DNA of 64,000 nucleotides from Gemmatimonadales bacterium (GCA_038205305.1 JBBRBZ010000002.1:2500-66499), one strand, 5' to 3'; positions 2,027-40,092 are shown, counted from the stretch's first letter. Made by a program: numbers and translations. The notes: generated from the sequence alone by a model not told the origin.

Positions 2027-4065
<2,039 letters not shown>

Positions 4066-5716: not shown

Positions 5717-6214
5717 ATGAGCAAGAGTCTCAACAAGGTGATCCTGCTGGGCAATCTTGGCGCCGATCCGGAGGTCCGCGCGACCCCGAATGGCGCCCGC
5801 GTGGCCACGCTTTCCCTCGCCACCGGGCGCCAGTGGAAGGGCGCCGATGGCCAACGCCAGGAGAAGACTGAGTGGCATCGGATCATCTGCTGGAACAACA
5901 AGACCGGGCAGCAGCTCGCCGACGTGGTCGAGAAGTATTGCAAAAAGGGCGACAAGCTCTACGTCGAGGGCGAGATTGAATATCGCTCGTGGCAGGACAA
6001 GGACGGCCAGACCAAGTACACCACCGAGATTCGCGCCCGCGAGATCATTCTGCTCTCCGGCAAGGGCGATTCCGATGGCGGCGGTAGCGGTGGTGGCAGC
6101 TGGAGCGGCGCGCGCGCCCCGAGCGGCAAGGCCGCGGCGGGTGCCAAGAAGGACACCTCGCTCGACGAGGTGCCCGAGGCGCTCGATGCCGATGATGATG
6201 ATCTGCCGTTCTGA
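5717..6214 (+). CDS. ssb: Single-stranded DNA-binding protein
   Basis: LNKVILLGNLGADPEVR OB-fold N-terminus, Gly-rich linker, acidic C-terminal tip DDDDLPF. Confidence 0.95.
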   Translation: MSKSLNKVILLGNLGADPEVRATPNGARVATLSLATGRQWKGADGQRQEKTEWHRIICWNNKTGQQLADVVEKYCKKGDKLYVEGEIEYRSWQDKDGQTKYTTEIRAREIILLSGKGDSDGGGSGGGSWSGARAPSGKAAAGAKKDTSLDEVPEALDADDDDLPF

Positions 6215-6244
6215 TCACTGAGGTACCGCGGCAGGAAAATGCTA

Positions 6245-6283
6245 GCAGACGGCCCGCCATTCACCGGGGGCCGTCTGCCTTTT
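6245..6283 (+). terminator. Rho-independent terminator after ssb
   Basis: Inverted repeat GCAGACGGCCC (6245-6255) / GGGCCGTCTGC (6268-6278), followed by CTTTTCC. Confidence 0.6.
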
Positions 6284-6349
6284 CCGGCCCCGTCCGATAC
6301 TACCGATCCATTAGCTTTCCCTCCATCCGACCCACCGGGAGGTACCGCA

Positions 6350-7159
6350 ATGCGATCGACCCTCACTGTGCTCGCCCTGCTGGCAGCCGCGCCCCTCGGC
6401 GCCCAAGTCAGTGCCCCAATGACGCCCCGAATGTCCGCGACCTCCAGTTCAGACCGCTCCGACGTCTTCGCACCGCTCCGGCCTGGTGAACTGCACTCCG
6501 CCGCCTTCCTCACCGAAATGCAGCCGATGCCGTACGGCCGAGTGCTCGGTCCGGTCAGCCAGGCGGCGGTGGTGGCCCACCAGTCGGCCGAGATGGTCAT
6601 GGTGGGGAGGACGATCGGCCTGCTGCCGCCGGCCGGGGCAGCCTATCAGCGCGGGGACACCGTCGTTCTCGCAGCCGTGACCCCGGCGGCGAGGGGTTGG
6701 GGGGAGATGGTGGTTCCCACCGGACTCGCGCTGGTCGGCGCGAGCACTCCCCGCCAGACCGAGGCCCTGGTGATCGCCAGCTACGGGCCGATTCGCGCGG
6801 GGCAGGTCACCCTGCCGATGGGCCCCACGCCGACGGCCAACAACAGCGACCCAGTGAAGGCAGATGGCCCGACCGGCAACTTCCTCTTTGGCGAGGAGCA
6901 GGGCAATCCGCGCCAACTGGGGAGCCAGCTCTTCATCGATATCGGGAGCAATGCCGGCCTGCGACTTGGCGACTACATCGAGTTCCGGGGTCACCCTGGC
7001 CCCCGGCTCAACGGCGCGGACACGATCGACAAGGGGCTGGCGATTGGCCAGGTAGTCCACCTTGGCGCCAAGAGCAGCACCGTCCGGCTCTACCGGATTT
7101 CCGACCCGACCATCGTGATGGGAACCCCCGCCGTACGGGTGGCGACCCTGCCCAACTGA
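6350..7159 (+). CDS. Secreted hypothetical protein with two tandem beta-rich modules
   Basis: ATG at 6350 preceded by GGGAGG. Signal peptide MRSTLTVLALLAAAPLGAQ. No family recognised with confidence. Confidence 0.6.
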   Translation: MRSTLTVLALLAAAPLGAQVSAPMTPRMSATSSSDRSDVFAPLRPGELHSAAFLTEMQPMPYGRVLGPVSQAAVVAHQSAEMVMVGRTIGLLPPAGAAYQRGDTVVLAAVTPAARGWGEMVVPTGLALVGASTPRQTEALVIASYGPIRAGQVTLPMGPTPTANNSDPVKADGPTGNFLFGEEQGNPRQLGSQLFIDIGSNAGLRLGDYIEFRGHPGPRLNGADTIDKGLAIGQVVHLGAKSSTVRLYRISDPTIVMGTPAVRVATLPN

Positions 7160-7247
7160 AGCGCGGCCCCTCGCTCGACTATCTTCCTCCCACATTCTCG
7201 TAAACCCTGACGGCGGGCGCCTTTGGCGTCCGCCGCGGAGATCTCAC

Positions 7248-8198
7248 ATGAGCGGTTCAGTCCTGATCACCGGTGGCGCCGGCTTCATCGGCTCGCACAT
7301 CGCCGAAGCCTTCCAGGGAGCCGGTTGGTCGGTCACCTGCCTCGATGACCTGTCGCGCGGCAAGCAGGAGCAGGTGCCGGCTGGCGCGACGTTCATCAAG
7401 GCCGATGTCCGCGATCGGCAGGCGTTCGAGGTGGCCGCCGATGGCCACTTCGACGTGATCATTCATGAGGCGGCCCAGATCGACGTCCGCGTGAGCGTGA
7501 CGGAACCGGCGCTCGACGCCTCGATCAACCTGGTCGGCTTTGCGAACATGCTCGCCGGTGCGGCCGCGGGGAAAACCCGGCGGGTGATCTTCGCGTCGAG
7601 CGGTGGTGTGGTCTATGGCGACCCCGCACTGCTGCCGACGCCTGAACCGACGGCGAATCTGCCGATCTCGCCGTACGGCGTCAGCAAACTCGCCGGTGAG
7701 CACTATCTCCGCGTGCTGGGCGAGCTGAATGGCTTCGAGGGTGTGGCCCTGCGCTACTCGAACGTCTACGGTCCCAGACAGGACCCCAAGTCGGAAGCCG
7801 GGGTCGTGTCGATCTTCGTCTCCCGCCTGCTGGAGGGAAAACCGTTGACCGTCTTTGGCGATGGCACCCAGACTCGTGACTACGTCTTCGTGAAGGATGT
7901 CGCGCGGGCCAACCTGCTCGCGGCGTCGGCGTCGATCACCCGGGGCACTCGCCTCGACGGTCCGGCGTTCAACATCGCCACCGGCAAGGAGACCACGGTG
8001 AACGAGCTGGCCGCCCATGTCGGTCGTGCGCTCGGAAAGACTCCCGTGATCGAGTACGCCGCCGCGCGGCCGGGCGAGCTCTTCCGCTCCTGCCTCGACG
8101 TGTCCAAGGCGGGCCGCGAACTGGGTTGGACACCTGAGGTCACCTTCGATGACGGCATGAAGGCGCTCGCCGGCTGGTTCGAAGGGTCCCGGTCGTGA
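7248..8198 (+). CDS. NAD-dependent epimerase/dehydratase (UDP-glucose 4-epimerase-like SDR)
   Basis: Rossmann motif VLITGGAGFIGSH, catalytic YGVSK, extended-SDR length (316 aa). Confidence 0.85.
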   Translation: MSGSVLITGGAGFIGSHIAEAFQGAGWSVTCLDDLSRGKQEQVPAGATFIKADVRDRQAFEVAADGHFDVIIHEAAQIDVRVSVTEPALDASINLVGFANMLAGAAAGKTRRVIFASSGGVVYGDPALLPTPEPTANLPISPYGVSKLAGEHYLRVLGELNGFEGVALRYSNVYGPRQDPKSEAGVVSIFVSRLLEGKPLTVFGDGTQTRDYVFVKDVARANLLAASASITRGTRLDGPAFNIATGKETTVNELAAHVGRALGKTPVIEYAAARPGELFRSCLDVSKAGRELGWTPEVTFDDGMKALAGWFEGSRS

Positions 8199-8908
8199 TG
8201 CAGTCGGCGCCGGACACCGGCCAATCCGCCAAGGGATTTCTGGACCTCATCATTGGTGCCAAGATCGAGACGCAGGTCGTCCTGCTGATCTGCGCCGTCT
8301 TCTCCGTCATCTCGTGGTACATCATCGCCGTGAAGTGGTGGGAGTTCCGCCGGCTGCGCGCCCAGCGGCGCAGCTTTGACCAGGCGATGCTCCGCACCCG
8401 CGGGATGGACGAACGGGAGCTGGCGGTTTCGACCATCGGCACGTCACCCTTCGGGGCGATCGTCCGCTGCACCACCGCGTTCCTCACCGACCTGCAGGAG
8501 ACGATGACCCGGCAGGGCGTCGAGCGGACTGGGCTTTCGCTCACCCAGCTCGAGGCGCTGTCGATGACACTCGAGAGCGAAGTGGGCAAAGAAGTCGATG
8601 AGGTGGGCCGCATGGTGCCCATGCTCGCCACGGTGGCTGCGACCGCACCGCTCCTCGGCCTGCTCGGTACGGTGCTGGGCATTGTCAACGCGTTCCTCAA
8701 TATCGGGCAGGGAAACGCGAGCAACCTCTCGGCCGTGGGTCCGAATATTGCCGACGCGCTGATTGCAACGGCGGCCGGCCTCGCCGCTGCGATTCCCGCG
8801 GTCGTGGCGTACAACGTCTTCACCGCACGGGCGCAGCGATTCGAGGGGGAACTCGAGCGGCTCGCCCAGGGAACCATCGGCGCCCTCGGGCGTGAGGGTC
8901 GCCTGTAG
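8195..8908 (+). CDS. tolQ: Tol-Pal system proton channel protein TolQ (MotA/TolQ/ExbB family)
   Basis: Overlaps the epimerase stop. C-terminal MotA_ExbB core LATVAATAPLLGLLGTVLGI..AF..I and ALIATAAGLAAAIPAVVAYN. Confidence 0.85.
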   Translation: MMQSAPDTGQSAKGFLDLIIGAKIETQVVLLICAVFSVISWYIIAVKWWEFRRLRAQRRSFDQAMLRTRGMDERELAVSTIGTSPFGAIVRCTTAFLTDLQETMTRQGVERTGLSLTQLEALSMTLESEVGKEVDEVGRMVPMLATVAATAPLLGLLGTVLGIVNAFLNIGQGNASNLSAVGPNIADALIATAAGLAAAIPAVVAYNVFTARAQRFEGELERLAQGTIGALGREGRL

Positions 8909-8909
8909 C

Positions 8910-9335
8910 ATGGCGCGATTCGGCGGACTCGGACGGATGCGGCGGGCTCGGCACCTCAACGCCGAGGTCAACATCATCAACCTCGTCGACGTGATCCTGG
9001 TGCTGTTGATCATCTTCATGATCACGGCACCGATCATGAGTGGCGGCGTCAAAGTCGAGTTGCCCAAGTCCGTGGTGGGACCGATCGAGACCGAGGACGT
9101 GCTCAACATCAGCATCACCAGCAAGGGGATGATCTCGATCGGCGACTCGCCCAAGCTGATGAGCTTCGACGCGTTTCGCGCAAGCATCGGGGTGGTGATC
9201 GCAAACGTGCATCCCAAGACTGCCTCCATCCGGGGGGACGCCTCGGTGCCGTACGGCGTCGTGACCCGGGTGATGGGCGTGCTGAACGAGCACAAGCTGC
9301 AGCTCGGCCTTGTCGCAGAGCCGATGAAGCCATGA
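8910..9335 (+). CDS. tolR: Tol-Pal system protein TolR (ExbD/TolR family)
   Basis: ATG at 8910 lies 1 nt after the tolQ stop. AEVNIINLVDVILVLLIIFMITAP is the ExbD/TolR TM signature. Confidence 0.85.
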   Translation: MARFGGLGRMRRARHLNAEVNIINLVDVILVLLIIFMITAPIMSGGVKVELPKSVVGPIETEDVLNISITSKGMISIGDSPKLMSFDAFRASIGVVIANVHPKTASIRGDASVPYGVVTRVMGVLNEHKLQLGLVAEPMKP

Positions 9336-10027
9336 ATGAGGTCTCGCGGGCACCGACATCGATCGGGGTGATCGGCACGACGGTCGCCCACGGACTCTTT
9401 GTTGGCGCGCTGCTCTTCGCCGGGCATCGGGGCAACGAGCCGCAGACGATCACCTATGCGGTGAGCCTCACCGCGGCGCCCGCGCCGTCGGCAGGCGCGT
9501 CGACCAAGCCCGTGGTCGCTCCGCCGCAGCCGGCGCCAGAGAAGGTGGTAGCGGCGAAGCCGACAGTGAAGGCGAAGAAGCCTCCGGCGAAGAAGCCGGA
9601 GGCCAAGAAGCCGACCGCGGTGCCGTCCACCAAGCCCGCGCCCAAGGAGGCGCAGCCAAAGACCACCACGACCCCGCTGCCCGGTGAGGCACCGGGCACC
9701 GGGCAGGACGTGCTGACCAAGACCTTTCCGGGGCTTGACTTTCCTGATCGCGAATATCTCGCGAAGATCGTCAATGAGGTCTACTCGCGTTTTGCCGACA
9801 AGGATTGGCCCGCAGGACTCGAGGCGATGGTCGGCTTCACCATTCACCGCGATGGGAGCATCACGGATATTGTCATGCTGAAATCCTCGCGCTGGCCGCC
9901 CTTCAATCTGGCGGCGAAGAGTGCCGTCACCGAGATGGCCAAGGCCAAGGTCCTCCCTCCGCTCCCGGCGATGTGGCCGAGTGATGCATTGCCGATCTCT
10001 TTCTCCTTCGCACCGAGGAAGCCGTGA
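9332..10027 (+). CDS. tolA: TolA-like energy transducer with TonB-type C-terminal domain
   Basis: ATGA overlap with tolR. N-terminal TM, Pro/Lys/Ala-rich spacer (KPAPKEAQPK..), and a C-terminal TonB_C-like fold (VGFTIHRDGSITDIVMLKSS). Position is between tolR and tolB. Confidence 0.7.
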   Translation: MNEVSRAPTSIGVIGTTVAHGLFVGALLFAGHRGNEPQTITYAVSLTAAPAPSAGASTKPVVAPPQPAPEKVVAAKPTVKAKKPPAKKPEAKKPTAVPSTKPAPKEAQPKTTTTPLPGEAPGTGQDVLTKTFPGLDFPDREYLAKIVNEVYSRFADKDWPAGLEAMVGFTIHRDGSITDIVMLKSSRWPPFNLAAKSAVTEMAKAKVLPPLPAMWPSDALPISFSFAPRKP

Positions 10028-11349
10028 ACCGACTCCTCCGCGGGGCGGTGGTCGGCGTGGTGCTGACGGCGGGTGCCGTGACCGCGGCGCTCGCCCAGGA
10101 TTCGAGCTCCATCAAGCGGGTAGCGCTGGGCATCACCTACGGCGGTGGCGCGCGTCCCGGGATGATCGTCATTGGCGCGCCCGGACTCGACTCCGTGCGC
10201 AAGATTGTCGAGCGCGACCTGCTGGCGAATTCCGATCACTATGAGGCGGCGTTCGTGCCGGACTCCACCAACGGGGCACTGCTCACGATCGACGCCCTCA
10301 AGGGAATCGGCATCCGCTGGGGCGTGGTGCTGACTCCGGCGCCCGGCGGCGTGCAGTCGCGGCTCTACAACCTCGTCACCGGCGTGCTGGTGCAGGACGC
10401 CACCCGCGCGCTCGACATCCGTGGTGAAGGTGATTCCCGCCTGGCGATCCATCAGTTGAGTGACGAGATCCAGAGCTGGACTGGTGAAGGGAAGGGCATC
10501 GCCGCGACACGCGTCATGATGAAGATCAAGCGCGGTGATGATGACCGCATCTGGCGGATTGACTCCGACGGCCAGAATTTGGTGCCGGTGACTCGCGCCG
10601 GGCCCTACTTTTACATCACCCCTGCTTGGGGTCCCGATGGCGAGCGAATTGCTTACTCGGAATACAGCGATGGGGTCTGGACCCTCTGGCTGCAGACCCT
10701 GAAGACGGGGACCAGAAATCGGGTCCAGTCCAAGAGCAACAACTCCTCGCCGGCCTTCGCGCCGGATGGGCAAACCCTTGCCTTTCAGCGGGACGCCGAA
10801 AAAGGTGCAAACATCTGGACCGTCGAGATTTCCGGAACCATCTGCTGCGAGGAGCAGAAGAACCCGACGCGGTTTGCGGATAACATTCACCCCACCTATT
10901 CTCCTAACGGCGCACGGATAGCCTTTGTCACCAACCGGGCCGGATCCCGACAGATCTGGGTGATGGACCGGGATGGGTCGCTACCGTCGGTGCTGGTGAT
11001 TCCCGAAACGGGGTTGGGCAGTGCGGGCGCCCCCGCGTGGTCGCCGGATGGAAGCACCATCGCCTATTCGCAGGATGTACAGGGCGGCGGTCGGCAGGTT
11101 CGGCTGTACAACATCGCCAGCGGGCGGACCACCGTGCTCGCGGCGTCGGGGCTGAACGACACCCCGAGTTGGGCGCCGGATTCCCGGCACTTGGTAGTGA
11201 AGACCAATCGATCGGGTCGGGAACAGTTGATGATTTTCGACATTCTGACCCAGGCCAGTCGACCATTGATCACCCCTGGCTCCACCACGTACCCTGCGTG
11301 GTCTCCGGCGCTCGGCGCCACGAACCCTCGAAACGGAGGACCGCAATGA
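10024..11349 (+). CDS. tolB: Tol-Pal system beta-propeller protein TolB
   Basis: GTGA overlap. Signal peptide, then repeated PxWSPDG-type blades (TPAWGPDGERIAYS, SPAFAPDGQTLAF, HPTYSPNGARIAF, APAWSPDGSTIAYS, TPSWAPDSRHLV). Confidence 0.85.
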   Translation: MNRLLRGAVVGVVLTAGAVTAALAQDSSSIKRVALGITYGGGARPGMIVIGAPGLDSVRKIVERDLLANSDHYEAAFVPDSTNGALLTIDALKGIGIRWGVVLTPAPGGVQSRLYNLVTGVLVQDATRALDIRGEGDSRLAIHQLSDEIQSWTGEGKGIAATRVMMKIKRGDDDRIWRIDSDGQNLVPVTRAGPYFYITPAWGPDGERIAYSEYSDGVWTLWLQTLKTGTRNRVQSKSNNSSPAFAPDGQTLAFQRDAEKGANIWTVEISGTICCEEQKNPTRFADNIHPTYSPNGARIAFVTNRAGSRQIWVMDRDGSLPSVLVIPETGLGSAGAPAWSPDGSTIAYSQDVQGGGRQVRLYNIASGRTTVLAASGLNDTPSWAPDSRHLVVKTNRSGREQLMIFDILTQASRPLITPGSTTYPAWSPALGATNPRNGGPQ

Positions 11350-11909
11350 CCCAGCGTACCCTCGTCGTGGCCCTGCTCGGGCTTGCGACCACCATGACTG
11401 CCTGCCACAAGAAGCCCCCCGTGACGGAGGCGACGCCGATCACGAGTACGGCGGCTCCGACCCAGACCAACACGTCGACGACCACGCCAACCACGTCATC
11501 GACCACGCCGACGGGCCCGTCCTCCAGGGAGATCACCGATCGGGTGACCGCCTCGCTCGGAGAGCGGATCCATTTCGAATACGATCAGGCGGCGGTTCGT
11601 GACCAGGATCGTGGCATCCTCGACGCCAAGATCGCGATCCTCCGGAAGAATCCGGCGGCCCGCATTCGCGTCACGGGACACTGCGATGAGCGCGGCTCCG
11701 ATGACTACAACATCACCCTCGGCATGAAGCGCGCGACCGCCGCCAAGGAGTACATGGTGCGGGCCGGCATCGACGCTTCGCGCATCGACGTCTCCTCGCT
11801 GGGTCGGGAGAAGCCGATCGACCCCTCGTCCAACGAGATGGCGTGGGCGGCCAATCGCCGTGACGAATTCGAGGTGACTGCGGGCGGCCAGGTCCTGTTG
11901 CAGCCATGA
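11346..11909 (+). CDS. pal: Peptidoglycan-associated lipoprotein Pal (OmpA family)
   Basis: ATGA overlap with tolB. Lipobox LATTMTAC, Thr/Ser-rich linker, OmpA-like domain (IHFEYDQAAV.., GHCDERGSDDYNITLGMKRA.., NRRDEFEV). Confidence 0.85.
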   Translation: MTQRTLVVALLGLATTMTACHKKPPVTEATPITSTAAPTQTNTSTTTPTTSSTTPTGPSSREITDRVTASLGERIHFEYDQAAVRDQDRGILDAKIAILRKNPAARIRVTGHCDERGSDDYNITLGMKRATAAKEYMVRAGIDASRIDVSSLGREKPIDPSSNEMAWAANRRDEFEVTAGGQVLLQP

Positions 11910-12670
11910 ACCGCCTTCGGCGCATCTTCCTTGGTCTGATGGTGGGGGCGGTGGCTTGTGCCACCCCGGGACAGGTGCGCCGAGTCGAAACGCAGGTCCT
12001 GATTGGCCAGGCCGAACAACACCGAGCGGATTCCGCCCGGGCGGCGGAGCTGGGGCGCCTCTTGGCGCATCAGCAAACGCTGATGGACTCGCTGCTCTCC
12101 GCGACCGCGACGCTCCAGACGCGGTTGAGTCAGCTGGACGCCAATGCCGCGGCAGGGGTGGAGGACGTCCGCCGGGACATCAGCATCCTGACCCAGTCGA
12201 TGAACGTCTCCACCCAGAAGATCGCCCAGATCCGCAGTGACATGGAGGCCCGGTCGGCAGCGAGCGGCGGGGACTCGACTGGCGGGGCCGCAGCCAGCGA
12301 TGACGCCCTCAATCGGGCAGCCGATCAGGAGCTGCTGGCAGGCCGGAATGAAACGGCGCGCGAGGCGTATCACCTCCTCATCAACAGCTTCCCGAATTCG
12401 GCCTACACGCCCAGGGCGTACATCCGAATCGGCGGGACCTTCGAACCGGCACAGCCAGACTCGGCGCGGGCCTACTATCAGGCAGTGCTGAAGCTTCCTG
12501 CCTCGGCCGTGGCGCAAGCCGCTGCACCGACGGCGCTGTACAAGCTGGGACAGCTCGAGGAACGCGCCGGCAACACCGATGCGGCGAAGGCGTTCTATCA
12601 ACAGATCGTCGAGCGATATCCCAACAGCGTCGAATACGGCCAAGCGCTCGCGAAGATCCGTCAGCAGTAG
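11906..12670 (+). CDS. cpoB: Tol-Pal system protein CpoB/YbgF (coiled coil + TPR)
   Basis: ATGA overlap with pal. N-terminal coiled coil; C-terminal YbgF-type TPRs (FPNSAYTPRAYIRIG.., ALYKLGQLEERAGNTDAAKAFYQQIVERYPNS). Confidence 0.75.
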   Translation: MNRLRRIFLGLMVGAVACATPGQVRRVETQVLIGQAEQHRADSARAAELGRLLAHQQTLMDSLLSATATLQTRLSQLDANAAAGVEDVRRDISILTQSMNVSTQKIAQIRSDMEARSAASGGDSTGGAAASDDALNRAADQELLAGRNETAREAYHLLINSFPNSAYTPRAYIRIGGTFEPAQPDSARAYYQAVLKLPASAVAQAAAPTALYKLGQLEERAGNTDAAKAFYQQIVERYPNSVEYGQALAKIRQQ

Positions 12671-12690
12671 CTTCCCGGGCTGACCTCCCC

Positions 12691-15600
12691 ATGAAACGAC
12701 CTTCCGGCGAGATGCCGTTCCTCGACCACCTCGAGGAATTGCGCTTCCGCATCTTGCGTGCGGTGCTGGCCATCGTCATTGGCGTCGGTCTGGGGCTCTG
12801 GGCGACGGTCCACTTCAACTTGATCCAGATCATCGCCGCGCCGATCGCGCCCTATCTCCCCGACCACAAGCTGGTGGTGCATGGGGTGACGGATCAGGTG
12901 ATGGTCGTCCTCAAGGTTGGTGCCACCTTCGGCATTGCCGCAGCGGCGCCGTACGTGCTCTACCAGTTGTGGGCCTTTCTCTCGCCGGCGCTCTACACCA
13001 GGGAAAAGAAGGCGATGATCCCCGCGATGCTCGCCGGCTTCATCCTGTTTTTTATTGGCGCAGCCATCGGCTGGTACTACGTGACCCCAATGGGTCTCGA
13101 CTTCCTGATGAACTTCATGCCGGGGACTTTCTCCCCGCTGATCACGACGGATGAATACTTTTCCTTCGTGATGCAGGTGATCCTGGCCTTCGGTATCTCG
13201 TTCGAACTGCCGCTGGTGATGGTCCTGCTGGCCTGGATCGGGGTCATGTCGTACCAGAAGTACAACTCGCTCCGTCGCTACGCCATCATCGTGAACTTCT
13301 TCCTGGGTGCGATTCTCTCACCTGGCACCGACGTCTTCTCGATGATCGTCTTCACCATTCCGCTACTGTTGCTCTACGAGCTCGGTGTCGCCGGCTCGTA
13401 CATCTTGGCCCGGCGCAAGCGGCTGCGGGACGCCGCGATCGCCGGTATCGTGCTGCTGGCGCTGGCGGGACTGCCACATGGACTCCAGGCGCAGGTCACC
13501 GGCGCGCCGCCCAAGAGTGGCCGGGCGCCCCCGGGGGCGCAGGACACCACGCGACGCCCTCCGTCGGCCAAGTCGCTCGACTCGGCCGCGGCCAAGCGCC
13601 TCGGCCTTCCGCTCGGCCCCACCGTCACTTTCCCTCCGCCCGATTCGATCGCCCAGCGACTCCTGAAGCGGAAGGGCTTCGGCTTCACCGAGATTGTCGG
13701 GGATTCGGCGAGGCTCTCCCCCGACGGGCCAAATTTTCGGGTGGCAGGCGGAGCGGTCCGCCGCGACTCGCTGATCTTTCAGGCGAACTTGCTGGATTTC
13801 CAGAACGCGACCTGCGAACTGCTGGGGACCGGGGCGCCGCAGCTCTTCCAGGGGAATCCGCCGAGGCCGCTGATCGGCCGCATCACCTCGGTGAACACCT
13901 GCTCGGACCGACTGGTGGTCAGTGAGGCATTCACCAAGTTCAACGAGATGGGTGGCGACTGGTACCTGCGCGGGAATGTTGCGATCGATTCCTCCTACTC
14001 CCGGCTCTTCGCCGCGCACAGCGAGTTCACCAGCTGCGACCTTCCCGATCCGCACTACCATTTCCAGTCGTCCCAGGTGAAGTGGGTGTCACAGTCGATC
14101 ATCGTGGCGCGCCCGGCGGTGCTCTACGTGCGGGACGTGCCTCTGGTCTGGCTCCCCTTCATCTTCCAGGACACCAAGTCGAACCGCAGCTCGGGGATCC
14201 TGATCCCGAAATTCGGTTTCAATGACATTGTCCGCCCGACGCGCGACTACAACCGCGCGATCACCAACATCGGTTACTACTGGGCGCCGAACGACTACAT
14301 CGACGTGACGACCAAGCTCGACTGGTATTCGAACCGCTACGTCAACTACGGGGCGCAACTGCGCTACGACTGGCGCAATCGCTTCGTCCGGGGCGATCTC
14401 GCCTACAACAAGCAGATCCAGGACAACGGGGCGACCGCGTTGACGGTGAACTGGAACCACGACCAGCGCTTCAACATCTCGACCACGCTCGCGCTCAGCT
14501 TCAACTACGTCTCCAACGGCGCGGTCGTGCAGAGCAACGCCATCGACCCGCTGCTCAACACGGCCAGCATCCGCAGCTCGCTCAACTTCACCAAGCGCTA
14601 CCGCTGGGGAAACATCTCCGTGGGCGGCAACCGCAGCGTGAGCATCACCGATGGCTCCGGCACGATGCAGTTTCCGTCCCTCTCCCTCTCCCCGCAGCCG
14701 ATTTCCATCGGGCGGTGGGGAACCTGGTCGCCGAACCTGCGCATTACCAATGACCTGGCCTTCAAGCAGCCGGGGGCGCTCGACGTGTTGCTCGGGAATG
14801 GCACGATCGACACCAGCACCGCCACCCGGCGCTCCAGGAACTCGGTGATCTCCCTGGAGACCCCGCTCCGGATCGGGTCGTTCAACTGGGCCAACACCAT
14901 CAACCTCTCGGATCAGCAGGTCACCGGCCTGTCGGTGGCTTCCATCCGACGCCCCGATACCACGACGGCCGATCCCAACGATTCCGTCACGGTTTCGGTG
15001 ACCCGGGGCGGCACCTTCCGGAGCGGATTCAACTACAACACCGGCATCAACTTGCCGCAGCTCCTTCGTTCATCGTGGCATCTCACCCCGACGGTCGGGA
15101 TCACCAATACCATCGAGAACTATCCGCTCTTCTATCGTTCCCAGGGCACCAACGGGGCCTGGGTGATGCAGGGGAAGAAGCTGCAGTTCTCGATGGCATC
15201 AACGCCGAGTTTCTACCTGCTCACCAAAGGCGGCATCGGGCCCGCTGACAGAGTCCGGTATTCGTTGTCGCCTCGGATCAACATCGCCTATTCGCCCAAG
15301 GCGACCCTTCCGAGTGACTTCGCCAAGGCACTGACCAACGAGGGGCTCTCCACTCCCACGGCGACACCGGCCACGATGACGATGCAGCTGGCGGTTGACC
15401 AGAGCATCCAGGCCAAGCCGCACCGCGCCGCGTCCGACACGATGTCGGCCGTGTCCACGGCGAGACCAGTGGAAGTCCTCCGCCTCAACACCTCCGCCGT
15501 CGCCTACGATTTCGAGCAGGCAAACCTGCCGGGGCGGACCGGGTGGACCACCTCGACACTCAATAACACCTTCGCGAGTGATCTCCTCCCCGGCTTCAAT

Positions 15601-16236
15601 TTTTCGCTGACCCATGATCTCTGGCGAGGGCAGGTGGGCACCGATACCGCTGTATTCTCACCCTTCCTTTCGAATGTGTCGGCGAGCTTGTCGCTCACCA
15701 GCCGCACCTTCAATGGCATTGGTCGGCTGCTGGGGCTGTCGAGTCGGATCAAGCCCCTGGCTCCGGGGGCACCGCCGTCCCCCGCCTTTCCGACGCAGCC
15801 CACGACCGGTCTCTTCGGCAATTCCTCGAATCAGCCACCGATGCTCTCCGCGCAGGGGCTGACGGCGAATATCAACTACACCCTGAGCCGGCGACGGCCT
15901 GATGGTGGTATCCAGGTGCCGCCGGTGCCGGAAGATCCGTTCGGCCAGCCGCCGATCGTCCTGCCCATCTCGAGTACGACCCAGAGCAACATCGGCCTCA
16001 ACACCTCGTTCTCGCCGACCCGGTTCTGGACCGTCCGCTGGGCGACCCAGTACAATGCGACGGCCAAGCGCTTCGAATCGCAGCAGATCCAGTTGCAGCG
16101 GAGCCTCCACGACTGGGTGGCCTCCTTCAACTTCACCAAGAACGCCAACGGCAACTATGCCCTGACCTTCAGCATTCACTTGATCCGGTTGCCGGACATC
16201 AAGTTTGACTACCAGCAGCAGACCTTCCAGCCCTGA
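12691..16236 (+). CDS. Single ORF encoding a complete TatC (about aa 1-245) fused in frame to an LptD/OstA-like outer-membrane protein (about aa 270-1181)
   Basis: - N-terminal part: MPFLDHLEELRFRI.., six hydrophobic segments, ..LSPGTDVFSM.., consistent with TatC.
- C-terminal part: OstA-like stretch, then the LptD core VPLVWLPFIFQDTKSNRSSGILIPKFGF..IGYYWAPNDYIDVT..GAQLRYDW and about 700 aa of alternating beta-strand-like sequence ending ..IKFDYQQQTFQP.
- No stop codon lies between the two parts in the given sequence. Confidence 0.8.
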   Translation: MKRPSGEMPFLDHLEELRFRILRAVLAIVIGVGLGLWATVHFNLIQIIAAPIAPYLPDHKLVVHGVTDQVMVVLKVGATFGIAAAAPYVLYQLWAFLSPALYTREKKAMIPAMLAGFILFFIGAAIGWYYVTPMGLDFLMNFMPGTFSPLITTDEYFSFVMQVILAFGISFELPLVMVLLAWIGVMSYQKYNSLRRYAIIVNFFLGAILSPGTDVFSMIVFTIPLLLLYELGVAGSYILARRKRLRDAAIAGIVLLALAGLPHGLQAQVTGAPPKSGRAPPGAQDTTRRPPSAKSLDSAAAKRLGLPLGPTVTFPPPDSIAQRLLKRKGFGFTEIVGDSARLSPDGPNFRVAGGAVRRDSLIFQANLLDFQNATCELLGTGAPQLFQGNPPRPLIGRITSVNTCSDRLVVSEAFTKFNEMGGDWYLRGNVAIDSSYSRLFAAHSEFTSCDLPDPHYHFQSSQVKWVSQSIIVARPAVLYVRDVPLVWLPFIFQDTKSNRSSGILIPKFGFNDIVRPTRDYNRAITNIGYYWAPNDYIDVTTKLDWYSNRYVNYGAQLRYDWRNRFVRGDLAYNKQIQDNGATALTVNWNHDQRFNISTTLALSFNYVSNGAVVQSNAIDPLLNTASIRSSLNFTKRYRWGNISVGGNRSVSITDGSGTMQFPSLSLSPQPISIGRWGTWSPNLRITNDLAFKQPGALDVLLGNGTIDTSTATRRSRNSVISLETPLRIGSFNWANTINLSDQQVTGLSVASIRRPDTTTADPNDSVTVSVTRGGTFRSGFNYNTGINLPQLLRSSWHLTPTVGITNTIENYPLFYRSQGTNGAWVMQGKKLQFSMASTPSFYLLTKGGIGPADRVRYSLSPRINIAYSPKATLPSDFAKALTNEGLSTPTATPATMTMQLAVDQSIQAKPHRAASDTMSAVSTARPVEVLRLNTSAVAYDFEQANLPGRTGWTTSTLNNTFASDLLPGFNFSLTHDLWRGQVGTDTAVFSPFLSNVSASLSLTSRTFNGIGRLLGLSSRIKPLAPGAPPSPAFPTQPTTGLFGNSSNQPPMLSAQGLTANINYTLSRRRPDGGIQVPPVPEDPFGQPPIVLPISSTTQSNIGLNTSFSPTRFWTVRWATQYNATAKRFESQQIQLQRSLHDWVASFNFTKNANGNYALTFSIHLIRLPDIKFDYQQQTFQP
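13405..13491 (+). other. Junction segment: signal-peptide-like element or 7th TM (ARRKRLRDAAIAGIVLLALAGLPHGLQA|Q), beginning at an in-frame TTG
   Basis: Basic n-region (RRKRLR), 14-residue hydrophobic core, helix breaker (P,G) and LQA-Q resembling a signal peptidase I site. TTG at 13405 is in frame. No convincing Shine-Dalgarno upstream. Confidence 0.5.
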
Positions 16237-16392
16237 CCAGGCCGACCGTCTGCCGCCCTCTGGTCCCCCGGTCCTGACCTGCCGACACTATACCGGATTG
16301 GCACCCCAATCTTGTTTCCGCCTGCGGCCGGGCCCATACTTAGAAACCCAAGTCCTGTCTACACTTGAGTCCACTCTTTCCCGCGATCCTTC

Positions 16393-18333
16393 ATGGCGCT
16401 CGATAAGCTCAAAGTAGCCGCGCGTCAACACGAGCTTCGCGACGAATGGCGCGAGGCCATCGAGCTCTACCGGCAGGCCATCCGGGAGGGGGAGGGGGGC
16501 ATCGAGGGGGGCGATCCGGCGCTCTACAACCGGATCGGCGACCTCTCCCTCAAGGCCGCCGACGCGCTCGCCGCCTGCGAGGCATGGGAACAGGCCGCGA
16601 CCCGTTACGGGGAGCAAGGCTTCTTCAACAACGCCATTGCGCTGTGCGGCAAGATCCTGAGGCTTGAGCCGAGCCGAGTCCATGTCTATCTCGAACTCGC
16701 CCGCTACCAGGCGCGAAAGCGCGTGCTCTACGACGTCCGCGACAACCTCGGCATCTATCACGATCGCATGGGAAAGATGGGCCGTCAGGATGACGCCCGG
16801 CTCCAGATCGAGCGACTCGGTCACGAGTTCCCTGGCTGGCGCGGCCTCGAGGCGTTGATCGATGAACTGCTCGGTCGCGACACCGCGATTCCTGCCCCGT
16901 CGAAAGCCGAAGCAGCCCATGGCAGTGCCGGTGGACTGGTGTTCATCGACACCGGGCCGCTGGCCATCGAACGGGCGTCGGACCCCGAGGTCGAGGCTGC
17001 CCCGGACGAGGAGGGGGCGCCCAGCGTGACCGCCGACCTCGAGTTGGAGGAGCGCCCCGAGGCGGTCCCACTCGACGGACTCGAATCCACCTCATCCGAA
17101 CTGGCCGACGACCAGAACGACAGCGAGGTCTCCGCGATCGACGGCCTGGTCAGTGTCGAGCAGACGTCGAGCGAGGTGGCCATGCCGACCCCGCTCGATG
17201 GGCTTGAGCGTTCTTCGGCCTTCGATGAATCCGACCCGGACGTCCCCGACACCGAGGTGGAAGGGCTGGAGTCCACCGGGCAGTCCGACGCCCAAACCGG
17301 GGCCGATGAGCCGACTGCCGGGGGAGTCGAAGGCGAGCCAGAGGGGATCGTCTTCCTCGACACCCACGCCGTGCCGGCTGAGGAGAGCCCGTCCGTCCCG
17401 CGTGAGTTTCCCATTGACGATCCGGTGGGCAACCGGGTGACGGCGCACGCGCTGCTCGAGAGCGGCGACCGCACCGGCGGCATCGCCGCCCTGGACGCTG
17501 CCCTCGCCGGGCACACTCTCCAGGAAGACTGGCTCCCGGCCTATCAGGTCGCCAGCGAATTGACGCAGGCCGATCCCTCGTCGATCCATCGCCACCAGGC
17601 GCGGGTCGAGGTCGCGTCACGGATGCGCGATGTGCCGCGACTCTGCGAGGCCTACGCCGATCTGGCCGACACTTTCGCCCGCGCCGGAAGCGCCGACAAG
17701 TCGGTGGCCGTCTATCGCCGCATCCTCGAGCTCGACGAACACCACGAGCGCGCCCGCGCGGCACTGCGCGCCATGGCGCCGCCGCCGGAGAACGAGACGC
17801 CGGATGGCTTCATCGATTTTGGCGCCATGGTGATCGATGATGCCGGCCCGCGCTCCACTCGGATGCGCACCGAGGCGCCCAGTGTGGCGCCCGACGAGGA
17901 CGACACCTTCCGGGAGGCCCTGGCAGAGTTCAAGCGCGCCCTCGACCAGAATCTCCCGGCAGAGGACTATCAGGCCCACTACGATCTCGGGATTGCGTTC
18001 AAGGAAATGGGGTTGCTCGACGAAGCCATCGGCGAGTTCCAGAAGGCGCTGCGCGCCCCCGAGGGTCGCCTTCGGACGTCGGAAGCACTGGGGCAGGTCT
18101 TCTTCGAGCAGAATCGTCCAGCGGTCGCCGAGGCGGTCCTGAAGAGCGTGGAGAAGGGCCCGGAGGGCGATGCCGACAAGATCGGCGTGCTCTACTGGCT
18201 CGGCCGTTCTCAGGAAGCGCAGGGGAAGGACGCGCAGGCGCGCGGGTGCTACGAACGCGTCCTCGCCGTCGATGTCGCATTCGCCGATGCCAGCGACCGG
18301 CTCACCCATCTCGACGATGAGGGGGCCGCGTGA
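16393..18333 (+). CDS. TPR-repeat protein with a central acidic repeat linker (hypothetical)
   Basis: N- and C-terminal TPR-like helices (HYDLGIAFKEMGLLDEAIGEFQKAL; LYWLGRSQEAQGKDAQARGCYERVL). Central D/E/S-rich region has four (L/I/V)(D/E)GL(E/V)S units. Confidence 0.6.
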   Translation: MALDKLKVAARQHELRDEWREAIELYRQAIREGEGGIEGGDPALYNRIGDLSLKAADALAACEAWEQAATRYGEQGFFNNAIALCGKILRLEPSRVHVYLELARYQARKRVLYDVRDNLGIYHDRMGKMGRQDDARLQIERLGHEFPGWRGLEALIDELLGRDTAIPAPSKAEAAHGSAGGLVFIDTGPLAIERASDPEVEAAPDEEGAPSVTADLELEERPEAVPLDGLESTSSELADDQNDSEVSAIDGLVSVEQTSSEVAMPTPLDGLERSSAFDESDPDVPDTEVEGLESTGQSDAQTGADEPTAGGVEGEPEGIVFLDTHAVPAEESPSVPREFPIDDPVGNRVTAHALLESGDRTGGIAALDAALAGHTLQEDWLPAYQVASELTQADPSSIHRHQARVEVASRMRDVPRLCEAYADLADTFARAGSADKSVAVYRRILELDEHHERARAALRAMAPPPENETPDGFIDFGAMVIDDAGPRSTRMRTEAPSVAPDEDDTFREALAEFKRALDQNLPAEDYQAHYDLGIAFKEMGLLDEAIGEFQKALRAPEGRLRTSEALGQVFFEQNRPAVAEAVLKSVEKGPEGDADKIGVLYWLGRSQEAQGKDAQARGCYERVLAVDVAFADASDRLTHLDDEGAA

Positions 18334-19322
18334 CCATGTCCCAAATCGGGCCGCTCTCCCTGACCGAACTTCAGGCGATGGTGGTCCCCCGACTGGTGCA
18401 CGTCGAGCACGAGATGCGGCGGATGATCGAGGACGACTTCCCGCTCATCACCGATGTCAACAAGCACCTGCTGCGGATGCGCGGCAAGATGTTCCGGCCG
18501 ACGCTCACCCTGCTCGCCGACGAGGCCACCAACGGCCCGACCGCCGCGGCCGCGGCGCTCGCCGCCGTCATCGAGCTGATCCATCTCGCCACCTTGGTGC
18601 ACGACGACTCGGTGGACCACTCGGTGCTGCGCCGCGGCATGCCGACGATCAACGCCCTGTTCTCGCATCAGGTGTCGGTGATCATGGGTGACTTCCTCTA
18701 CTCCCGTGCCATGGTCGAGCTGGTCCGGCTCGGCGGGATGGATGCGCTCCGCATCCTTGCCCGCGTGACCAACGAGATGACGGTTGGCGAGATGCGGCAG
18801 TTGCTCTCCCACGATCCCCTCGCCTTCACCGAGGAGGACTACGATCTCCTCATCAAGGCGAAGACGGCCTCGCTCCTCTCGGCGGCGTGCGAGGTGGGCT
18901 CCCTTGGCGCACCGCGCGAGCAGCGGGAGGCGCTCGCCCGTTTCGGCGAGAACCTCGGGATGGCGTTCCAGATCGTCGATGACCTGCTCGACTACGTCGC
19001 GGACCAGTCGAGCACCGGCAAGCCCTCCGGGCTCGACCTGCGCGAGCACAAGGTCACCCTGCCGCTCATCTACGCCCTGCCGGCCTTCTCCGCGGCGGAG
19101 CGGCAGCGGCTCGACACCCTGATGCGGAATGCCGAGCCCTCCGACCGGGAGATTGCCGACGTGGTCGCGGCTGTGGCCGCCCACGGGGGACTGGACGCCG
19201 CCCGGGAGCGGGCCCAGCGGCTCTGCGCCCAGGCAGACGACGATCTTGCCACCCTGCCCGAGAGTCCGGCCCGCGACACCCTTCGGGCTTCTCTCACCTA
19301 CGTTCTGGAGCGGCGCCGCTGA
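18330..19322 (+). CDS. ispB: Polyprenyl diphosphate synthase (octaprenyl/heptaprenyl type)
   Basis: First DDxxD motif LVHDDSVDHSVLRRG, second motif FQIVDDLLDY, and KTASL. Confidence 0.9.
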   Translation: MTMSQIGPLSLTELQAMVVPRLVHVEHEMRRMIEDDFPLITDVNKHLLRMRGKMFRPTLTLLADEATNGPTAAAAALAAVIELIHLATLVHDDSVDHSVLRRGMPTINALFSHQVSVIMGDFLYSRAMVELVRLGGMDALRILARVTNEMTVGEMRQLLSHDPLAFTEEDYDLLIKAKTASLLSAACEVGSLGAPREQREALARFGENLGMAFQIVDDLLDYVADQSSTGKPSGLDLREHKVTLPLIYALPAFSAAERQRLDTLMRNAEPSDREIADVVAAVAAHGGLDAARERAQRLCAQADDDLATLPESPARDTLRASLTYVLERRR

Positions 19323-19594
19323 TGCCTGCCGGACCGAAGCGCCCCCGGTTCTACCTCGGCGTACTGGTGGCCGGGTTCCTGATTGGCGGGTATCTGAACG
19401 CCCTCCTCAGCCGGTTCCTCCCCGACAGCGCCGCCAAGAGCTTTTTCACCTTCGCTGTGACCCCGAACTTCGGGACTGTGACGGTGAACCTGCTGGTGGT
19501 ATCGTTCACCCTTGGCCCGGTTGGGGTGACTGTCTCCCTCCTGAGCCTCGTTGGGGTTGCCGTGGCATACTACGCTGCGCGCTCGATTTTCTAG
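19322..19594 (+). CDS. Small two-TM membrane protein, DUF4321-like
   Basis: ATG shares one nt with the ispB stop. 90 aa with hydrophobic N- and C-terminal segments flanking FTFAVTPNFGTVTVNLLVVSFTLGP, a pattern I associate with DUF4321 (from memory). Confidence 0.5.
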   Translation: MPAGPKRPRFYLGVLVAGFLIGGYLNALLSRFLPDSAAKSFFTFAVTPNFGTVTVNLLVVSFTLGPVGVTVSLLSLVGVAVAYYAARSIF

Positions 19595-19606
19595 AAGGGA
19601 GTCTGC

Positions 19607-19864
19607 ATGTTCGGAAATCTGGGATTCATGGAGATCATGGCCCTCATGGTCGTCGTTCTCCTGGTGTTCGGGGCGAAGCGTCTGCCGGAAATCGGCTCCT
19701 CCATGGGGAAGGGCATCCGCGAGTTCAAACGGTCGCTCACCGATACGCAGGCCGCCTTGAACGAGGCCGTCTCCGATGATCGCAGCGGCGCACCTTCGCG
19801 GCCGATCGAGGGCCAGCCGGTCACACCGCCGAACTCCGCCGAGCCGAAGCGCCTCTCGCAGTAG
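19607..19864 (+). CDS. tatA: Twin-arginine translocase subunit TatA/E
   Basis: MFGNLGFMEIMALMVVVLLVFGAKRLPEIGSSMGKGIREFK is the canonical TatA TM plus amphipathic helix. AAGGGAG Shine-Dalgarno lies 6 nt upstream. Confidence 0.9.
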   Translation: MFGNLGFMEIMALMVVVLLVFGAKRLPEIGSSMGKGIREFKRSLTDTQAALNEAVSDDRSGAPSRPIEGQPVTPPNSAEPKRLSQ

Positions 19865-19885
19865 CGGGTGAGGGAACGGAAAATC

Positions 19886-19919
19886 GAACGGGCGCCCGAG
19901 TTTCCTCGGGCGCCCGTTC
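19886..19919. terminator. Perfect 15-bp hairpin between convergent tatA and ppiD (bidirectional terminator candidate)
   Basis: GAACGGGCGCCCGAG-TTTC-CTCGGGCGCCCGTTC. On the minus strand the stem is followed by GATTTTCC. Confidence 0.6.
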
Positions 19920-19941
19920 TGCATGCCTTCACACCCGGGGA

Positions 19942-21795
19942 TCAGCGCTTTGGCTGACCCGCCTGCTGTGCCGCGTTGGCCGCCTCGGCCTGCGCGGTGG
20001 TCATCTGGGCGTCGGCGCGGGTGTCCTTCACCTTGGCGTTGGCCCGAAGTGCCGCGATGAACTGCCGCAGGCGATCCTGCTTCGCCAGGCGGAAGAACTG
20101 CGCGGAAAGCTGATCCTTGTCTTTCAGGAATGCCGTCGAGTCGGCCGGCACACGGTCGAGCACCTTCGCCACGTAGAGCCCGTCGGGCGTGTCGATGAGG
20201 TTGCTGGTCTCGCCCTTGTGAAGCCCGAACACCGCACCGATCAGACTTGGCGTCGTGATCGGCGGCTGCACTCGTGTGAAGAGCGGGAAGTCCTGATTGG
20301 GAAGCTTCATCGCCTTGGACGCATCGGCAAGTGATTCGCCCGCGCGGATCCGCTTGACCAGTGTCTCCCCCAACTGCTTGGCCAGCACCACCTTCTTTTC
20401 CAGCCGGACGCCGTAGTCCACGGCGCCGCGCACTGCAGCCAAGGCCGGCATGCCGGCATCCTGCACCGAATCAAGCCTGAAAACGTACGACGCGACTTCG
20501 CCTTCAATCACCGACGAGGTCTCGTTCTTCTTGGCTTGGAACGCCCAGACCGCGGCATCGGGAATGACGTACTGTCCCAGCACCACTCGACCGCTCTCCT
20601 GCACCGGACCGGTCTGGCCAATCGGCAGCTTCAGCACCCGAGCCACGGTGTCAAGCGCTGCGGGATCGAGGCGTTCAGCCGCGAGGCGCTCGAGCGAATC
20701 GGTCTCGGCATCGACCTGGTCACGATGCTTGCCGGCAAGTTCGATCTTCACCAGGATGTGACTGGCGGTCACGCTGTCCTTTGTCCGCTTGCTCACCTTG
20801 ATCAGGTGGTATCCGAATTCAGTGACGACCGGTTCGGACACGATGTTGAGCGGCAGCGAGAAGGCGGCGCCCTCGAACGACTTGGCCATCGCCCCGCGAC
20901 CGAACGTGCCGAGGTCGCCGCCGTTTCGGCCACTGACGGTATCCGCCGACTCGCGCTTCGCCACTTCGGCGAAGGGCGTGCCCTTCTGGATCTCGTCCCG
21001 GAGGGCCTTGGCGTGATCGAGGGCCGCCGCGGTATCGCTGGCGTCGAGCTTGCGCGGCACCGCCACGAAGCTCATGAAGGCCTGACGGGGCCGCTTGAAG
21101 TCGTCCCCGTGCGCCTTGAAGTAGGCCTGTGCCTCGGCGTCGCTCACTTGGACCGCACTGTCGGGAATTGCGTTCCGCGGCAGGATGGCGGTGAGCGAGA
21201 TGCTCACCTCCTCATGCTGGTCGCGGTAGCGCTCCCAGAGCGCCGCGTCGGAAAGAAAGACGTCAGCGGTCACGTTGCGCATCAGCTTGGTCTGGAGCAG
21301 GTCGTTGCGGGCCTGCGCCTCCAGTTGCGGCACGAACTGGGAGCCGAGCGGTGAGGCCAGCCAGCGCTGATACTTCGCCAGGTCGAACCGGCCATCGGTC
21401 TGGAACTCCTGGCTGGTCTGCAGCTCCTGTGGCGGGACGTTGCGGATCCAGTCGGCGACTTCATCATCACCGACGGTGATGCCGGCCTTCTTGATCTGGT
21501 CCGACATGACCGCCTGCTGGATGAACGACTCCCAGACCTGGTTCCTGACCTCCTGGCGCTCGTCGAGGCCGAGGGAAGTTCCGGTCTGTTGCTGCCGCTG
21601 CTGGACCGCGTTCTGGACCGCGGCTTCGTACGTCCGGGTGTCGACGCTGGTCCCGTTGATCGATCCAACGGTAGTCTTGGTGAAGAACCCCCCCTTGCCG
21701 GAGATGCCGCTCAGGTCGACAATCATCCAGGTGAGGAAGGTGATCGTGATCAGGTAGACCACGGGCTTGGCGGCGTTTCGGAAGGCTTGCATCAT
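19942..21795 (-). CDS. ppiD: Periplasmic chaperone / peptidyl-prolyl isomerase PpiD-like (SurA_N + parvulin)
   Basis: N-terminal anchor MMQAFRNAAKPVVYLITITFLTWMIV, SurA_N-like region, and a parvulin domain (GGDLGTFGRGAMAKSFEGAAFSL..TEFGYHLIKV). Confidence 0.8.
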   Translation of the reverse strand: MMQAFRNAAKPVVYLITITFLTWMIVDLSGISGKGGFFTKTTVGSINGTSVDTRTYEAAVQNAVQQRQQQTGTSLGLDERQEVRNQVWESFIQQAVMSDQIKKAGITVGDDEVADWIRNVPPQELQTSQEFQTDGRFDLAKYQRWLASPLGSQFVPQLEAQARNDLLQTKLMRNVTADVFLSDAALWERYRDQHEEVSISLTAILPRNAIPDSAVQVSDAEAQAYFKAHGDDFKRPRQAFMSFVAVPRKLDASDTAAALDHAKALRDEIQKGTPFAEVAKRESADTVSGRNGGDLGTFGRGAMAKSFEGAAFSLPLNIVSEPVVTEFGYHLIKVSKRTKDSVTASHILVKIELAGKHRDQVDAETDSLERLAAERLDPAALDTVARVLKLPIGQTGPVQESGRVVLGQYVIPDAAVWAFQAKKNETSSVIEGEVASYVFRLDSVQDAGMPALAAVRGAVDYGVRLEKKVVLAKQLGETLVKRIRAGESLADASKAMKLPNQDFPLFTRVQPPITTPSLIGAVFGLHKGETSNLIDTPDGLYVAKVLDRVPADSTAFLKDKDQLSAQFFRLAKQDRLRQFIAALRANAKVKDTRADAQMTTAQAEAANAAQQAGQPKR

Positions 21796-39316: not shown

Positions 39317-39365
39317 TGTCTGCTGATGATCCCCGGTTTGGCATTCCTACTTGCTGGAGGTACCG

Positions 39366-40076: not shown

Positions 40077-40092
40077 GGTCGCAGCGCACCTG

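Follow-up and report, generated by a model that had tools for sequence, protein, structure and literature searches.

To our knowledge, few bacterial polyproteins are known to be resolved via an internal signal peptide, and the classical one is FbcH: according to work by Thony-Meyer, James and Hennecke dating from 1991 (PNAS 88:5001), the FbcH precursor of Bradyrhizobium japonicum reportedly yields cytochromes b and c1 through cleavage at an internal signal peptide. Here we describe a comparable gene in a 64,000-nucleotide (nt) stretch of DNA from a Gemmatimonadales bacterium (GCA_038205305.1 JBBRBZ010000002.1:2500-66499; hereafter, the window), in which TatC and an LptD-type protein are covalently encoded in a single open reading frame (ORF) and joined via one additional hydrophobic segment. 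The two systems are alike in that a polytopic inner-membrane protein, an internal signal peptide and an exported protein come from one gene. The hydropathy, fold and junction alignment of the window protein match this layout, with a cytoplasmic TatC end, an in-frame signal peptide and an exported protein. The products of FbcH, however, are said to be subunits of one complex and their cleavage to have been demonstrated, whereas for TatC-LptD we predict cleavage from the junction. In addition, no functional link is known between TatC and LptD, which end up in different membranes, and the downstream product is a 100-kDa outer-membrane beta-barrel.

The start ATG of the fused ORF is kept across homologues, with M1, G6 and E7 nearly invariant in the family alignment, and the translation contains no internal stop codon. 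The gene and its parts are as follows (window coordinates; aa, amino acids of the precursor).

12691..16236, plus strand: fused tatC::lptD ORF, ATG start, 1181 codons plus stop, 129.8-kDa precursor.
12724..13362, plus strand: TatC domain, aa 12-224 (Pfam PF00902, TIGR00945, hydropathy, Foldseek, PDB profile).
13408..13491, plus strand: internal Sec-type signal peptide, aa 240-267 (junction alignment, motif statistics, unfused orthologues).
13492..13578, plus strand: variable Pro/Arg/Asp/Thr-rich linker, aa 268-296, predicted N-terminus of the mature LptD part (disordered in the structural model).
13579..13692, plus strand: conserved N-terminal motif LDSAAAKRLGLP...F..PDS....LL.R.GF, aa 297-334 (alignment, model).
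13687..14100, plus strand: periplasmic beta-jellyroll-like N-terminal domain, about aa 333-470 (model strands, profile match).
14107..16182, plus strand: large C-terminal beta-barrel, about aa 473-1164 (LptD_2 match at aa 471-930, model, Foldseek).

The same arrangement was found in many relatives. Among 5.8 billion proteins searched, more than 100 full-length relatives carried both Pfam domains (1155-1225 aa, 46-71% identity); those with a name all came from metagenome-assembled genomes (MAGs) of Gemmatimonadota and were all labelled 'twin-arginine translocase subunit TatC'. A scan of one genome per GTDB species gave 593 stretches encoding relatives, and the best 80 loci of the 593, which were analysed, all belonged to Gemmatimonadota. 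At 73 of the 74 loci with an evaluable junction the two parts lie in the same frame without an intervening stop. We conclude that the tatC::lptD fusion is real and has been conserved in its lineage; it is widespread and modestly surprising. The first-pass annotation of this DNA, made from the window sequence, had presented the fusion as undescribed. Searches of the PMC and bioRxiv literature found no description of a TatC-LptD fusion, in line with that claim, but the protein is not unique, as hundreds of such sequences are already public and mis-named 'TatC'.

The ORF is broken in four related loci: by frameshifts in L041 and L078, which are long-read MAGs, by an in-frame stop in L061, and by a split with an ATGA overlap in L046, the sole clean one among the four. 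The stop in L061, a Gemmatimonadaceae MAG, is a single codon (codon 693, at about nt 3370) in the LptD part, after which the remainder aligns in frame; it is either a sequencing error or the mark of a pseudogene. On the L041 contig the fusion gene occurs twice (11557-15070, minus strand, and 6001-9517, plus strand); the second copy, which is inverted, frameshifted and close to the contig end, is probably an assembly artefact and not a real duplication.

By all sequence and structure tests the N-terminal part is an ordinary TatC, and a role in Tat export is predicted for it. The PF00902 match to aa 12-224 covers the whole model (positions 1-208 of 208; E 9.7e-60, 202.4 bits against a cutoff of 25.1), and with 191.1 bits the protein also clears the 132.7-bit cutoff of the NCBIfam tatC equivalog TIGR00945. 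Kyte-Doolittle hydropathy places six transmembrane (TM) helices at about aa 21-39, 72-90, 108-126, 163-181, 198-216 and 215-233, followed by a seventh hydrophobic segment at aa 247-265 and nothing TM-like downstream. The solved TatC structures 4b4a, 4hts and 9dzz were matched by Foldseek with a TM-score on the target of 0.79-0.81 (4b4a, 0.79 at 35% identity), and the family sequence profile retrieved 4b4a from the PDB with an E value of 1.5e-62. The TatC of Aquifex aeolicus (4b4a) and that of Escherichia coli (9dzz) share full-length homology with the window TatC at 32-35% identity, as well as the six TM helices. Unlike theirs, the C-terminus of the window TatC is not free and runs into the signal peptide, and after the predicted cleavage it would keep a seventh helix and end in the periplasm. 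Extra sequence on a TatC is not unprecedented, because another fold-search match, the solved Myxococcus xanthus TatC chain 9e03_A, has 377-409 residues and is far longer than usual TatC.

An AlphaFold2 model of the whole protein was built from 62 homologues and has a mean predicted local distance difference test score (pLDDT) of 72.4. It consists of a confident helical TatC (pLDDT of the helices, 75-92), a disordered stretch at about aa 245-297 (pLDDT <50), a beta-rich region at aa 333-470 and a very large barrel extending to about aa 1164, and predicts no packing between TatC and LptD. The best matches of Foldseek in the PDB were full-length LptD structures (4q35_A with an E value of 1e-21, 9kn3_A and 5iv9_A; E 1e-21 to 1e-19 over about 950 aligned columns). 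Pfam LptD_2 (PF19838) matches aa 471-930 with an E value of 1.5e-27 and 96.9 bits, the cutoff being 22.5. The proteobacterial LptD equivalogs match weakly, at aa 443-608 (E 1e-7), NF003358 with 30.5 bits (cutoff 944) and NF002997 with 25.1 bits (cutoff 683). The C-terminal part is thus a distant, LptD_2-type relative and not an equivalog of the E. coli protein. Both domains assigned by the first-pass annotation, a complete six-TM TatC and a full-length LptD-type protein in one uninterrupted 1181-codon frame, are borne out by these results, since the hidden Markov models of TatC and LptD_2 both score above their cutoffs; the motifs it quoted all occur in the translation where it placed them, and the topology it proposed, with exactly one additional hydrophobic segment, is self-consistent.

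An OstA-like stretch at the start of the LptD part, also proposed there, fared less evenly. The model is beta-rich in this region, and the family profile aligns with LptD N-terminal parts: positions 332-634 with residues 89-379 of the Neisseria LptD chain 7omm_A, weakly (E 1.5e-4), and positions 338-506 with 8h1r_A. Pfam OstA, on the other hand, gave no match to aa 268-470 of the window protein at E<=0.01; OstA PF03968 does appear in the precomputed Pfam list for two distant fused homologues, P0210 and P0475. Structure and profile, without a direct Pfam OstA match, support an OstA-like character of the stretch.

Proteobacterial LptD (Shigella/E. coli 4q35 and 9kn3, Neisseria 7omm) is built from a beta-jellyroll in the periplasm and a very large beta-barrel, an architecture that the modelled window protein appears to share, and it shows weak profile-level similarity to the window protein in the jellyroll and the first part of the barrel. 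Identity to the solved structures is nevertheless only 9-12%, and the window LptD part differs by an additional 65-aa N-terminal linker and motif, the mature protein being larger (914 aa). In homologues, 22-56 aa of linker separate the cleavage site from the KRLGLP motif. The motif that follows the linker is strongly conserved in fused homologues, where it reads LDSATAKRLGLPT.P.R.F..PDS....LL.R.GF..TR; D297, R303, G305, P307, P310, F314, D318, L324 and G329 are invariant in the alignment, and two short helices are modelled within it, at 298-304 and 319-325. Solved LptD barrels have 26 strands. In our model about 26-30 long strands lie between aa 473 and 1164.

The whole protein has only three cysteines, C375, C404 and C449 (nt 13813-14037), and each belongs to the periplasmic N-terminal domain of the LptD part; C449 is invariant, and C375 and C404 are present in >=90% of homologues. 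The disulfides of E. coli LptD join the N-terminal domain and the C-terminus of the barrel. Interdomain disulfides of this type cannot form in the window protein, because all of its cysteines sit in the N-terminal domain, and the cysteine pattern hints at disulfides unlike those of E. coli LptD.

The junction between the two parts reads RRKRLRD-AAIAGIVLLALAGLP-HGLQA↓QVTG in the window (here and below the arrow marks the cleavage site), with RRKRLRD as n-region, AAIAGIVLLALAGL as h-region and PHGLQA as c-region. Signal peptidase I is predicted to cut between A267 and Q268, that is, between nt 13491 and 13492. Every fused homologue shows the same succession behind the end of TatC helix 6 (...LLLYE-GVAGS...): several Arg/Lys in a row, 10-15 hydrophobic residues, in many cases a Pro, and then A/L-x-A and Gln. 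Motif statistics were taken over 143 fused proteins. Ala occupies position -1 in 117/143 (82%) and A/G/S in 130/143; at position -3 there are 65 A, 41 L and 30 G/T/S/V (136/143 together); and the +1 Gln that anchors the site is nearly invariant in homologues. The n-region has a median net charge of +5, and the median distance from the start of the h-region to the cleavage site is 20 aa, a length that includes the c-region and fits a signal peptide, not a stable TM helix.

The unfused orthologues, of which 108 were compared, carry a signal peptide homologous to this junction at their N-terminus. These proteins (907-1060 aa) start with M/V and have a signal peptide of the same type, AxA↓Q, a Pro/Arg-rich linker and the motif PDSVM..LL.R.GY; P0132, for example, reads MIAGTRLAILALAAVALVASGRALGA↓QVTPPRPDS... 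Because the unfused orthologues begin with the same signal peptide, the seventh hydrophobic segment corresponds to LptD's own signal peptide. Ala at -1 occurs in 86/108 (80%) of the unfused orthologues, a conservation level equal to that of the fused set, and the cleavage site is therefore still under selection in the fused proteins. The cleavage motif has not decayed in lineages fused long enough to have diverged to 36-50% identity. A twin-arginine signal for LptD was considered and rejected, the RR of the junction being the positive-inside tail of TatC helix 6. In the unfused LptD signal peptides read, whose n-region is short and modestly basic (median net charge +2; one Arg in L082 and L083), there was no S/T-R-R-x-F-L-K motif.

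When the LptD part alone was searched with HMMER against 1.84 billion cluster representatives, the matches were a mixture of fused proteins (1124-1203 aa, matching from about aa 265-310) and unfused proteins (907-1040 aa, matching from aa 20-60). The distant fused proteins are placed in Longimicrobiales by a separate homology search. Seven split loci show how the two genes adjoin:

L082, L083 and L087: tatC/lptD overlap of 4 nt, read directly as GTGA in L082 and L083.
L046: tatC/lptD overlap of 4 nt, ATGA.
L085: tatC/lptD overlap of 8 nt.
L081 (67% identical to the window protein): tatC/lptD overlap of 17 nt.
L086: tatC/lptD spacer of 56 nt.

In all seven, tatC lies immediately upstream of lptD, and in the four that have upstream DNA (L082, L083, L086 and L087) tol-pal-cpoB genes precede tatC. 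The unfused Gemmatimonadota pairs (Gemmatimonadaceae-type and some Longimicrobiales MAGs) resemble the window in gene order, in their orthologous TatC and LptD_2 domains (LptD part, 32-67% identity), and in the LptD signal peptide, AxA↓Q site, Pro/Arg-rich linker and PDSVM motif. They differ in that the tatC stop is retained and lptD has its own ATG or GTG, whereas the window TatC tail runs straight into the signal peptide. Orthologues in close relatives, which the first-pass annotation had proposed to compare, therefore give a divided answer: the fusion is shared by nearly all evaluable loci, but some relatives carry separate tatC and lptD, which argues that both parts function as separate proteins.

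The two states are intermingled within the phylum. By NCBI names, a large unfused clade lies in 'Gemmatimonadaceae' with one fused exception (P0385, locus L084); fused and unfused forms are interleaved in Longimicrobiales, and both also occur in Gemmatimonadales. A neighbour-joining tree was built from 238 LptD parts, of which 129 were fused and 109 unfused. It is a rough tree whose change count is a lower bound; it requires at least six changes of state, and unfused proteins are nested within the fused Gemmatimonadales clade. The phylum thus displays, at the same locus, a continuum from spaced to overlapping to fused genes. In the window, the fused ORF begins 20 nt behind a tol-pal cluster:

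8195..12670, plus strand: tolQ-tolR-tolA-tolB-pal-cpoB(ybgF) cluster (Pfam MotA_ExbB, ExbD, TonB_2, PD40, OmpA, TPR_6).

Since the gap is only 20 nt, the cluster and the fused ORF are likely to share an operon. The tol-pal-cpoB order was found upstream of the fusion in all 72 related loci with upstream DNA, and this suggests that the tol-pal operon of Gemmatimonadota includes tatC and lptD. We conclude that the fusion arose from two translationally coupled neighbours at the end of that operon.

How, then, would such a protein reach two membranes? We consider it likely, judging from the junction, that the fusion product is a polyprotein cut by signal peptidase into TatC and mature LptD. The TatC part would enter the inner membrane co-translationally with its six helices, the last of them ending in the cytoplasm, and aa 240-267 would then act as the Sec signal peptide of LptD and open the translocon for the LptD part. 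The basic n-region would remain cytoplasmic while the short h-region spans the membrane, and signal peptidase I would cut behind LQA267 at the periplasmic face. The mature LptD so released, of 914 aa and 100.3 kDa with Gln268 at its N-terminus, would travel to the outer membrane via the usual chaperone and beta-barrel assembly machinery (BAM) route. The remaining TatC, of 29.5 kDa, would retain the signal peptide as a seventh, C-terminal helix. The two products would act independently, TatC with TatA in Tat export and LptD in the insertion of lipopolysaccharide (LPS). On this account fusion would mainly fix 1:1 synthesis, which a 4-nt overlap already approximates, and make LptD export obligatorily co-translational. 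The fused state is probably close to neutral relative to overlapping genes; the repeated switches between states suggest that the fitness difference is small.

Several points weigh against a polyprotein resolved by signal peptidase. The Leu at -3 in 41 of the 143 fused proteins is tolerated by signal peptidase I but is less than optimal; a signal peptide that lies internally, after a polytopic protein, could in principle escape cleavage and serve as a signal anchor; large clades have long kept the fused state, which could mean a benefit that the polyprotein model leaves unexplained; and cleavage itself is deduced from the junction sequence. The first of these points leads to the alternative that processing is of another kind or is partial. 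A different site or protease might be used, a fraction of the precursor might be cut to give a possibly regulated mixture of fused and free protein, or the signal peptide might later be trimmed off TatC. The -3 Leu might slow cleavage and so favour such a scheme, but the signal-peptidase-I motif is the only conserved feature of the junction and the residues that follow it are variable. We regard other or partial processing as unlikely.

The signal anchor leads to a second alternative, named among the candidate explanations of the first-pass annotation, in which LptD stays covalently on TatC and the protein is a trans-envelope tether linking inner and outer membranes. The ORF is indeed uninterrupted in hundreds of species, and behind the hydrophobic segment comes a disordered, Pro-rich linker (22-56 aa) that, with the periplasmic jellyroll, might reach across a large part of the periplasm. 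Four observations speak against it, however: AxA↓Q is conserved equally in the unfused orthologues, where cleavage is required; the h-region is of signal-peptide length, too short for a stable TM helix; the linker is also present in the unfused orthologues, so it is not a tethering adaptation; and fused and split states have replaced one another at least six times. We think a genuine tether quite improbable, and the same low probability attaches to a version in which the signal peptide is uncleaved or conditionally cleaved and a fraction of LptD remains anchored to TatC, forming a single-polypeptide bridge between inner and outer membranes beside Tol-Pal. In a milder form, cleavage occurs, but the retained seventh helix may change the working of TatC and LptD export may be strictly co-translational and dependent on the signal recognition particle (SRP), which is unusual for an outer-membrane protein.

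Internal initiation would make LptD separately, from a start codon within the fused ORF, leaving the fusion protein as a minor or non-functional by-product. In split relatives, the ATG or GTG of lptD overlaps the tatC stop, and an in-frame ATG, GTG or TTG is present in the n-region of 9/38 fused ORFs. The other 29 of these 38, including the window, have no ATG, GTG or TTG from the first basic residue to h-region +2, however; Met is found in the n-region of only 3/143 fused homologues, and ribosomes on tatC would read through and still make the fusion. No Met or start codon is conserved at the junction, and internal initiation was set aside as very unlikely. Finally, a lost stop or an indel that merged two genes in the window through sequencing or assembly error can be dismissed, even if fused and split forms differ only by the frame at a short overlap and this gene is frameshifted in some long-read MAGs (L041, L078), because 73 of 74 evaluable and independent species-representative genomes share the in-frame fusion, as do more than 100 protein clusters originating from many projects and platforms of sequencing, which rules such error out as a general explanation. 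Among the explanations listed by the first-pass annotation, the polyprotein processed by signal peptidase is thus the one we favour, on the strength of the conserved AxA↓Q junction and its homology to the N-terminal signal peptide of unfused orthologues.

If the polyprotein prediction is true, the fusion would be a widespread natural instance of a bacterial polyprotein that signal peptidase separates at an internal signal peptide, and an outer-membrane beta-barrel would be made as a C-terminal continuation of a polytopic protein of the inner membrane. It would then also provide natural experiments on co-translational (SRP/SecYEG) versus post-translational export of an outer-membrane protein, on the tolerance of TatC for an additional C-terminal helix, and on the conversion of overlapping genes into fusions and back, with spaced, overlapping and fused states and at least six switches. 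A more immediate consequence concerns annotation. Automatic pipelines name the 1150-1250-aa fusions only 'TatC', so that LptD looks absent from many Gemmatimonadota genomes, and surveys that deal with LPS transport or with the evolution of the diderm envelope could be misled by the hidden LptD.

Further downstream, the window contains the partner of the TatC part:

19607..19864, plus strand: tatA, 85 aa (Pfam TatA_B_E PF02416, E 1.2e-15).

It sits 3.4 kb downstream of tatC, beyond a 646-aa TPR protein and a polyprenyl synthase. A promoter/terminator scan of 7000-20000 gave nothing above shuffled expectation near the fused gene; a strong 15-bp GC-rich hairpin lies at 19886-19919, after tatA and before a convergent gene. 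The neighbourhood of the unfused loci found with a Longimicrobiales-type query includes nrdR immediately upstream of tatC in L085 (733-1230) and L086 (4638-5147, after cpoB). In several unfused loci histidine-utilisation genes (histidine ammonia-lyase, urocanase and imidazolonepropionase) follow lptD; the gene downstream of the fused ORF in the window is that of the TPR protein and not of histidine utilisation. Elsewhere in the window, at 39288-42041 on the minus strand, a 917-aa ORF has no Pfam match at E<=0.01 and may be a spurious antisense ORF of this GC-rich window or a protein of unknown family. The gene convergent with tatA (19942-21795, minus strand) encodes a 617-aa SurA/PpiD-like periplasmic chaperone with SurA_N_2 plus rotamase domains, another envelope-biogenesis gene.

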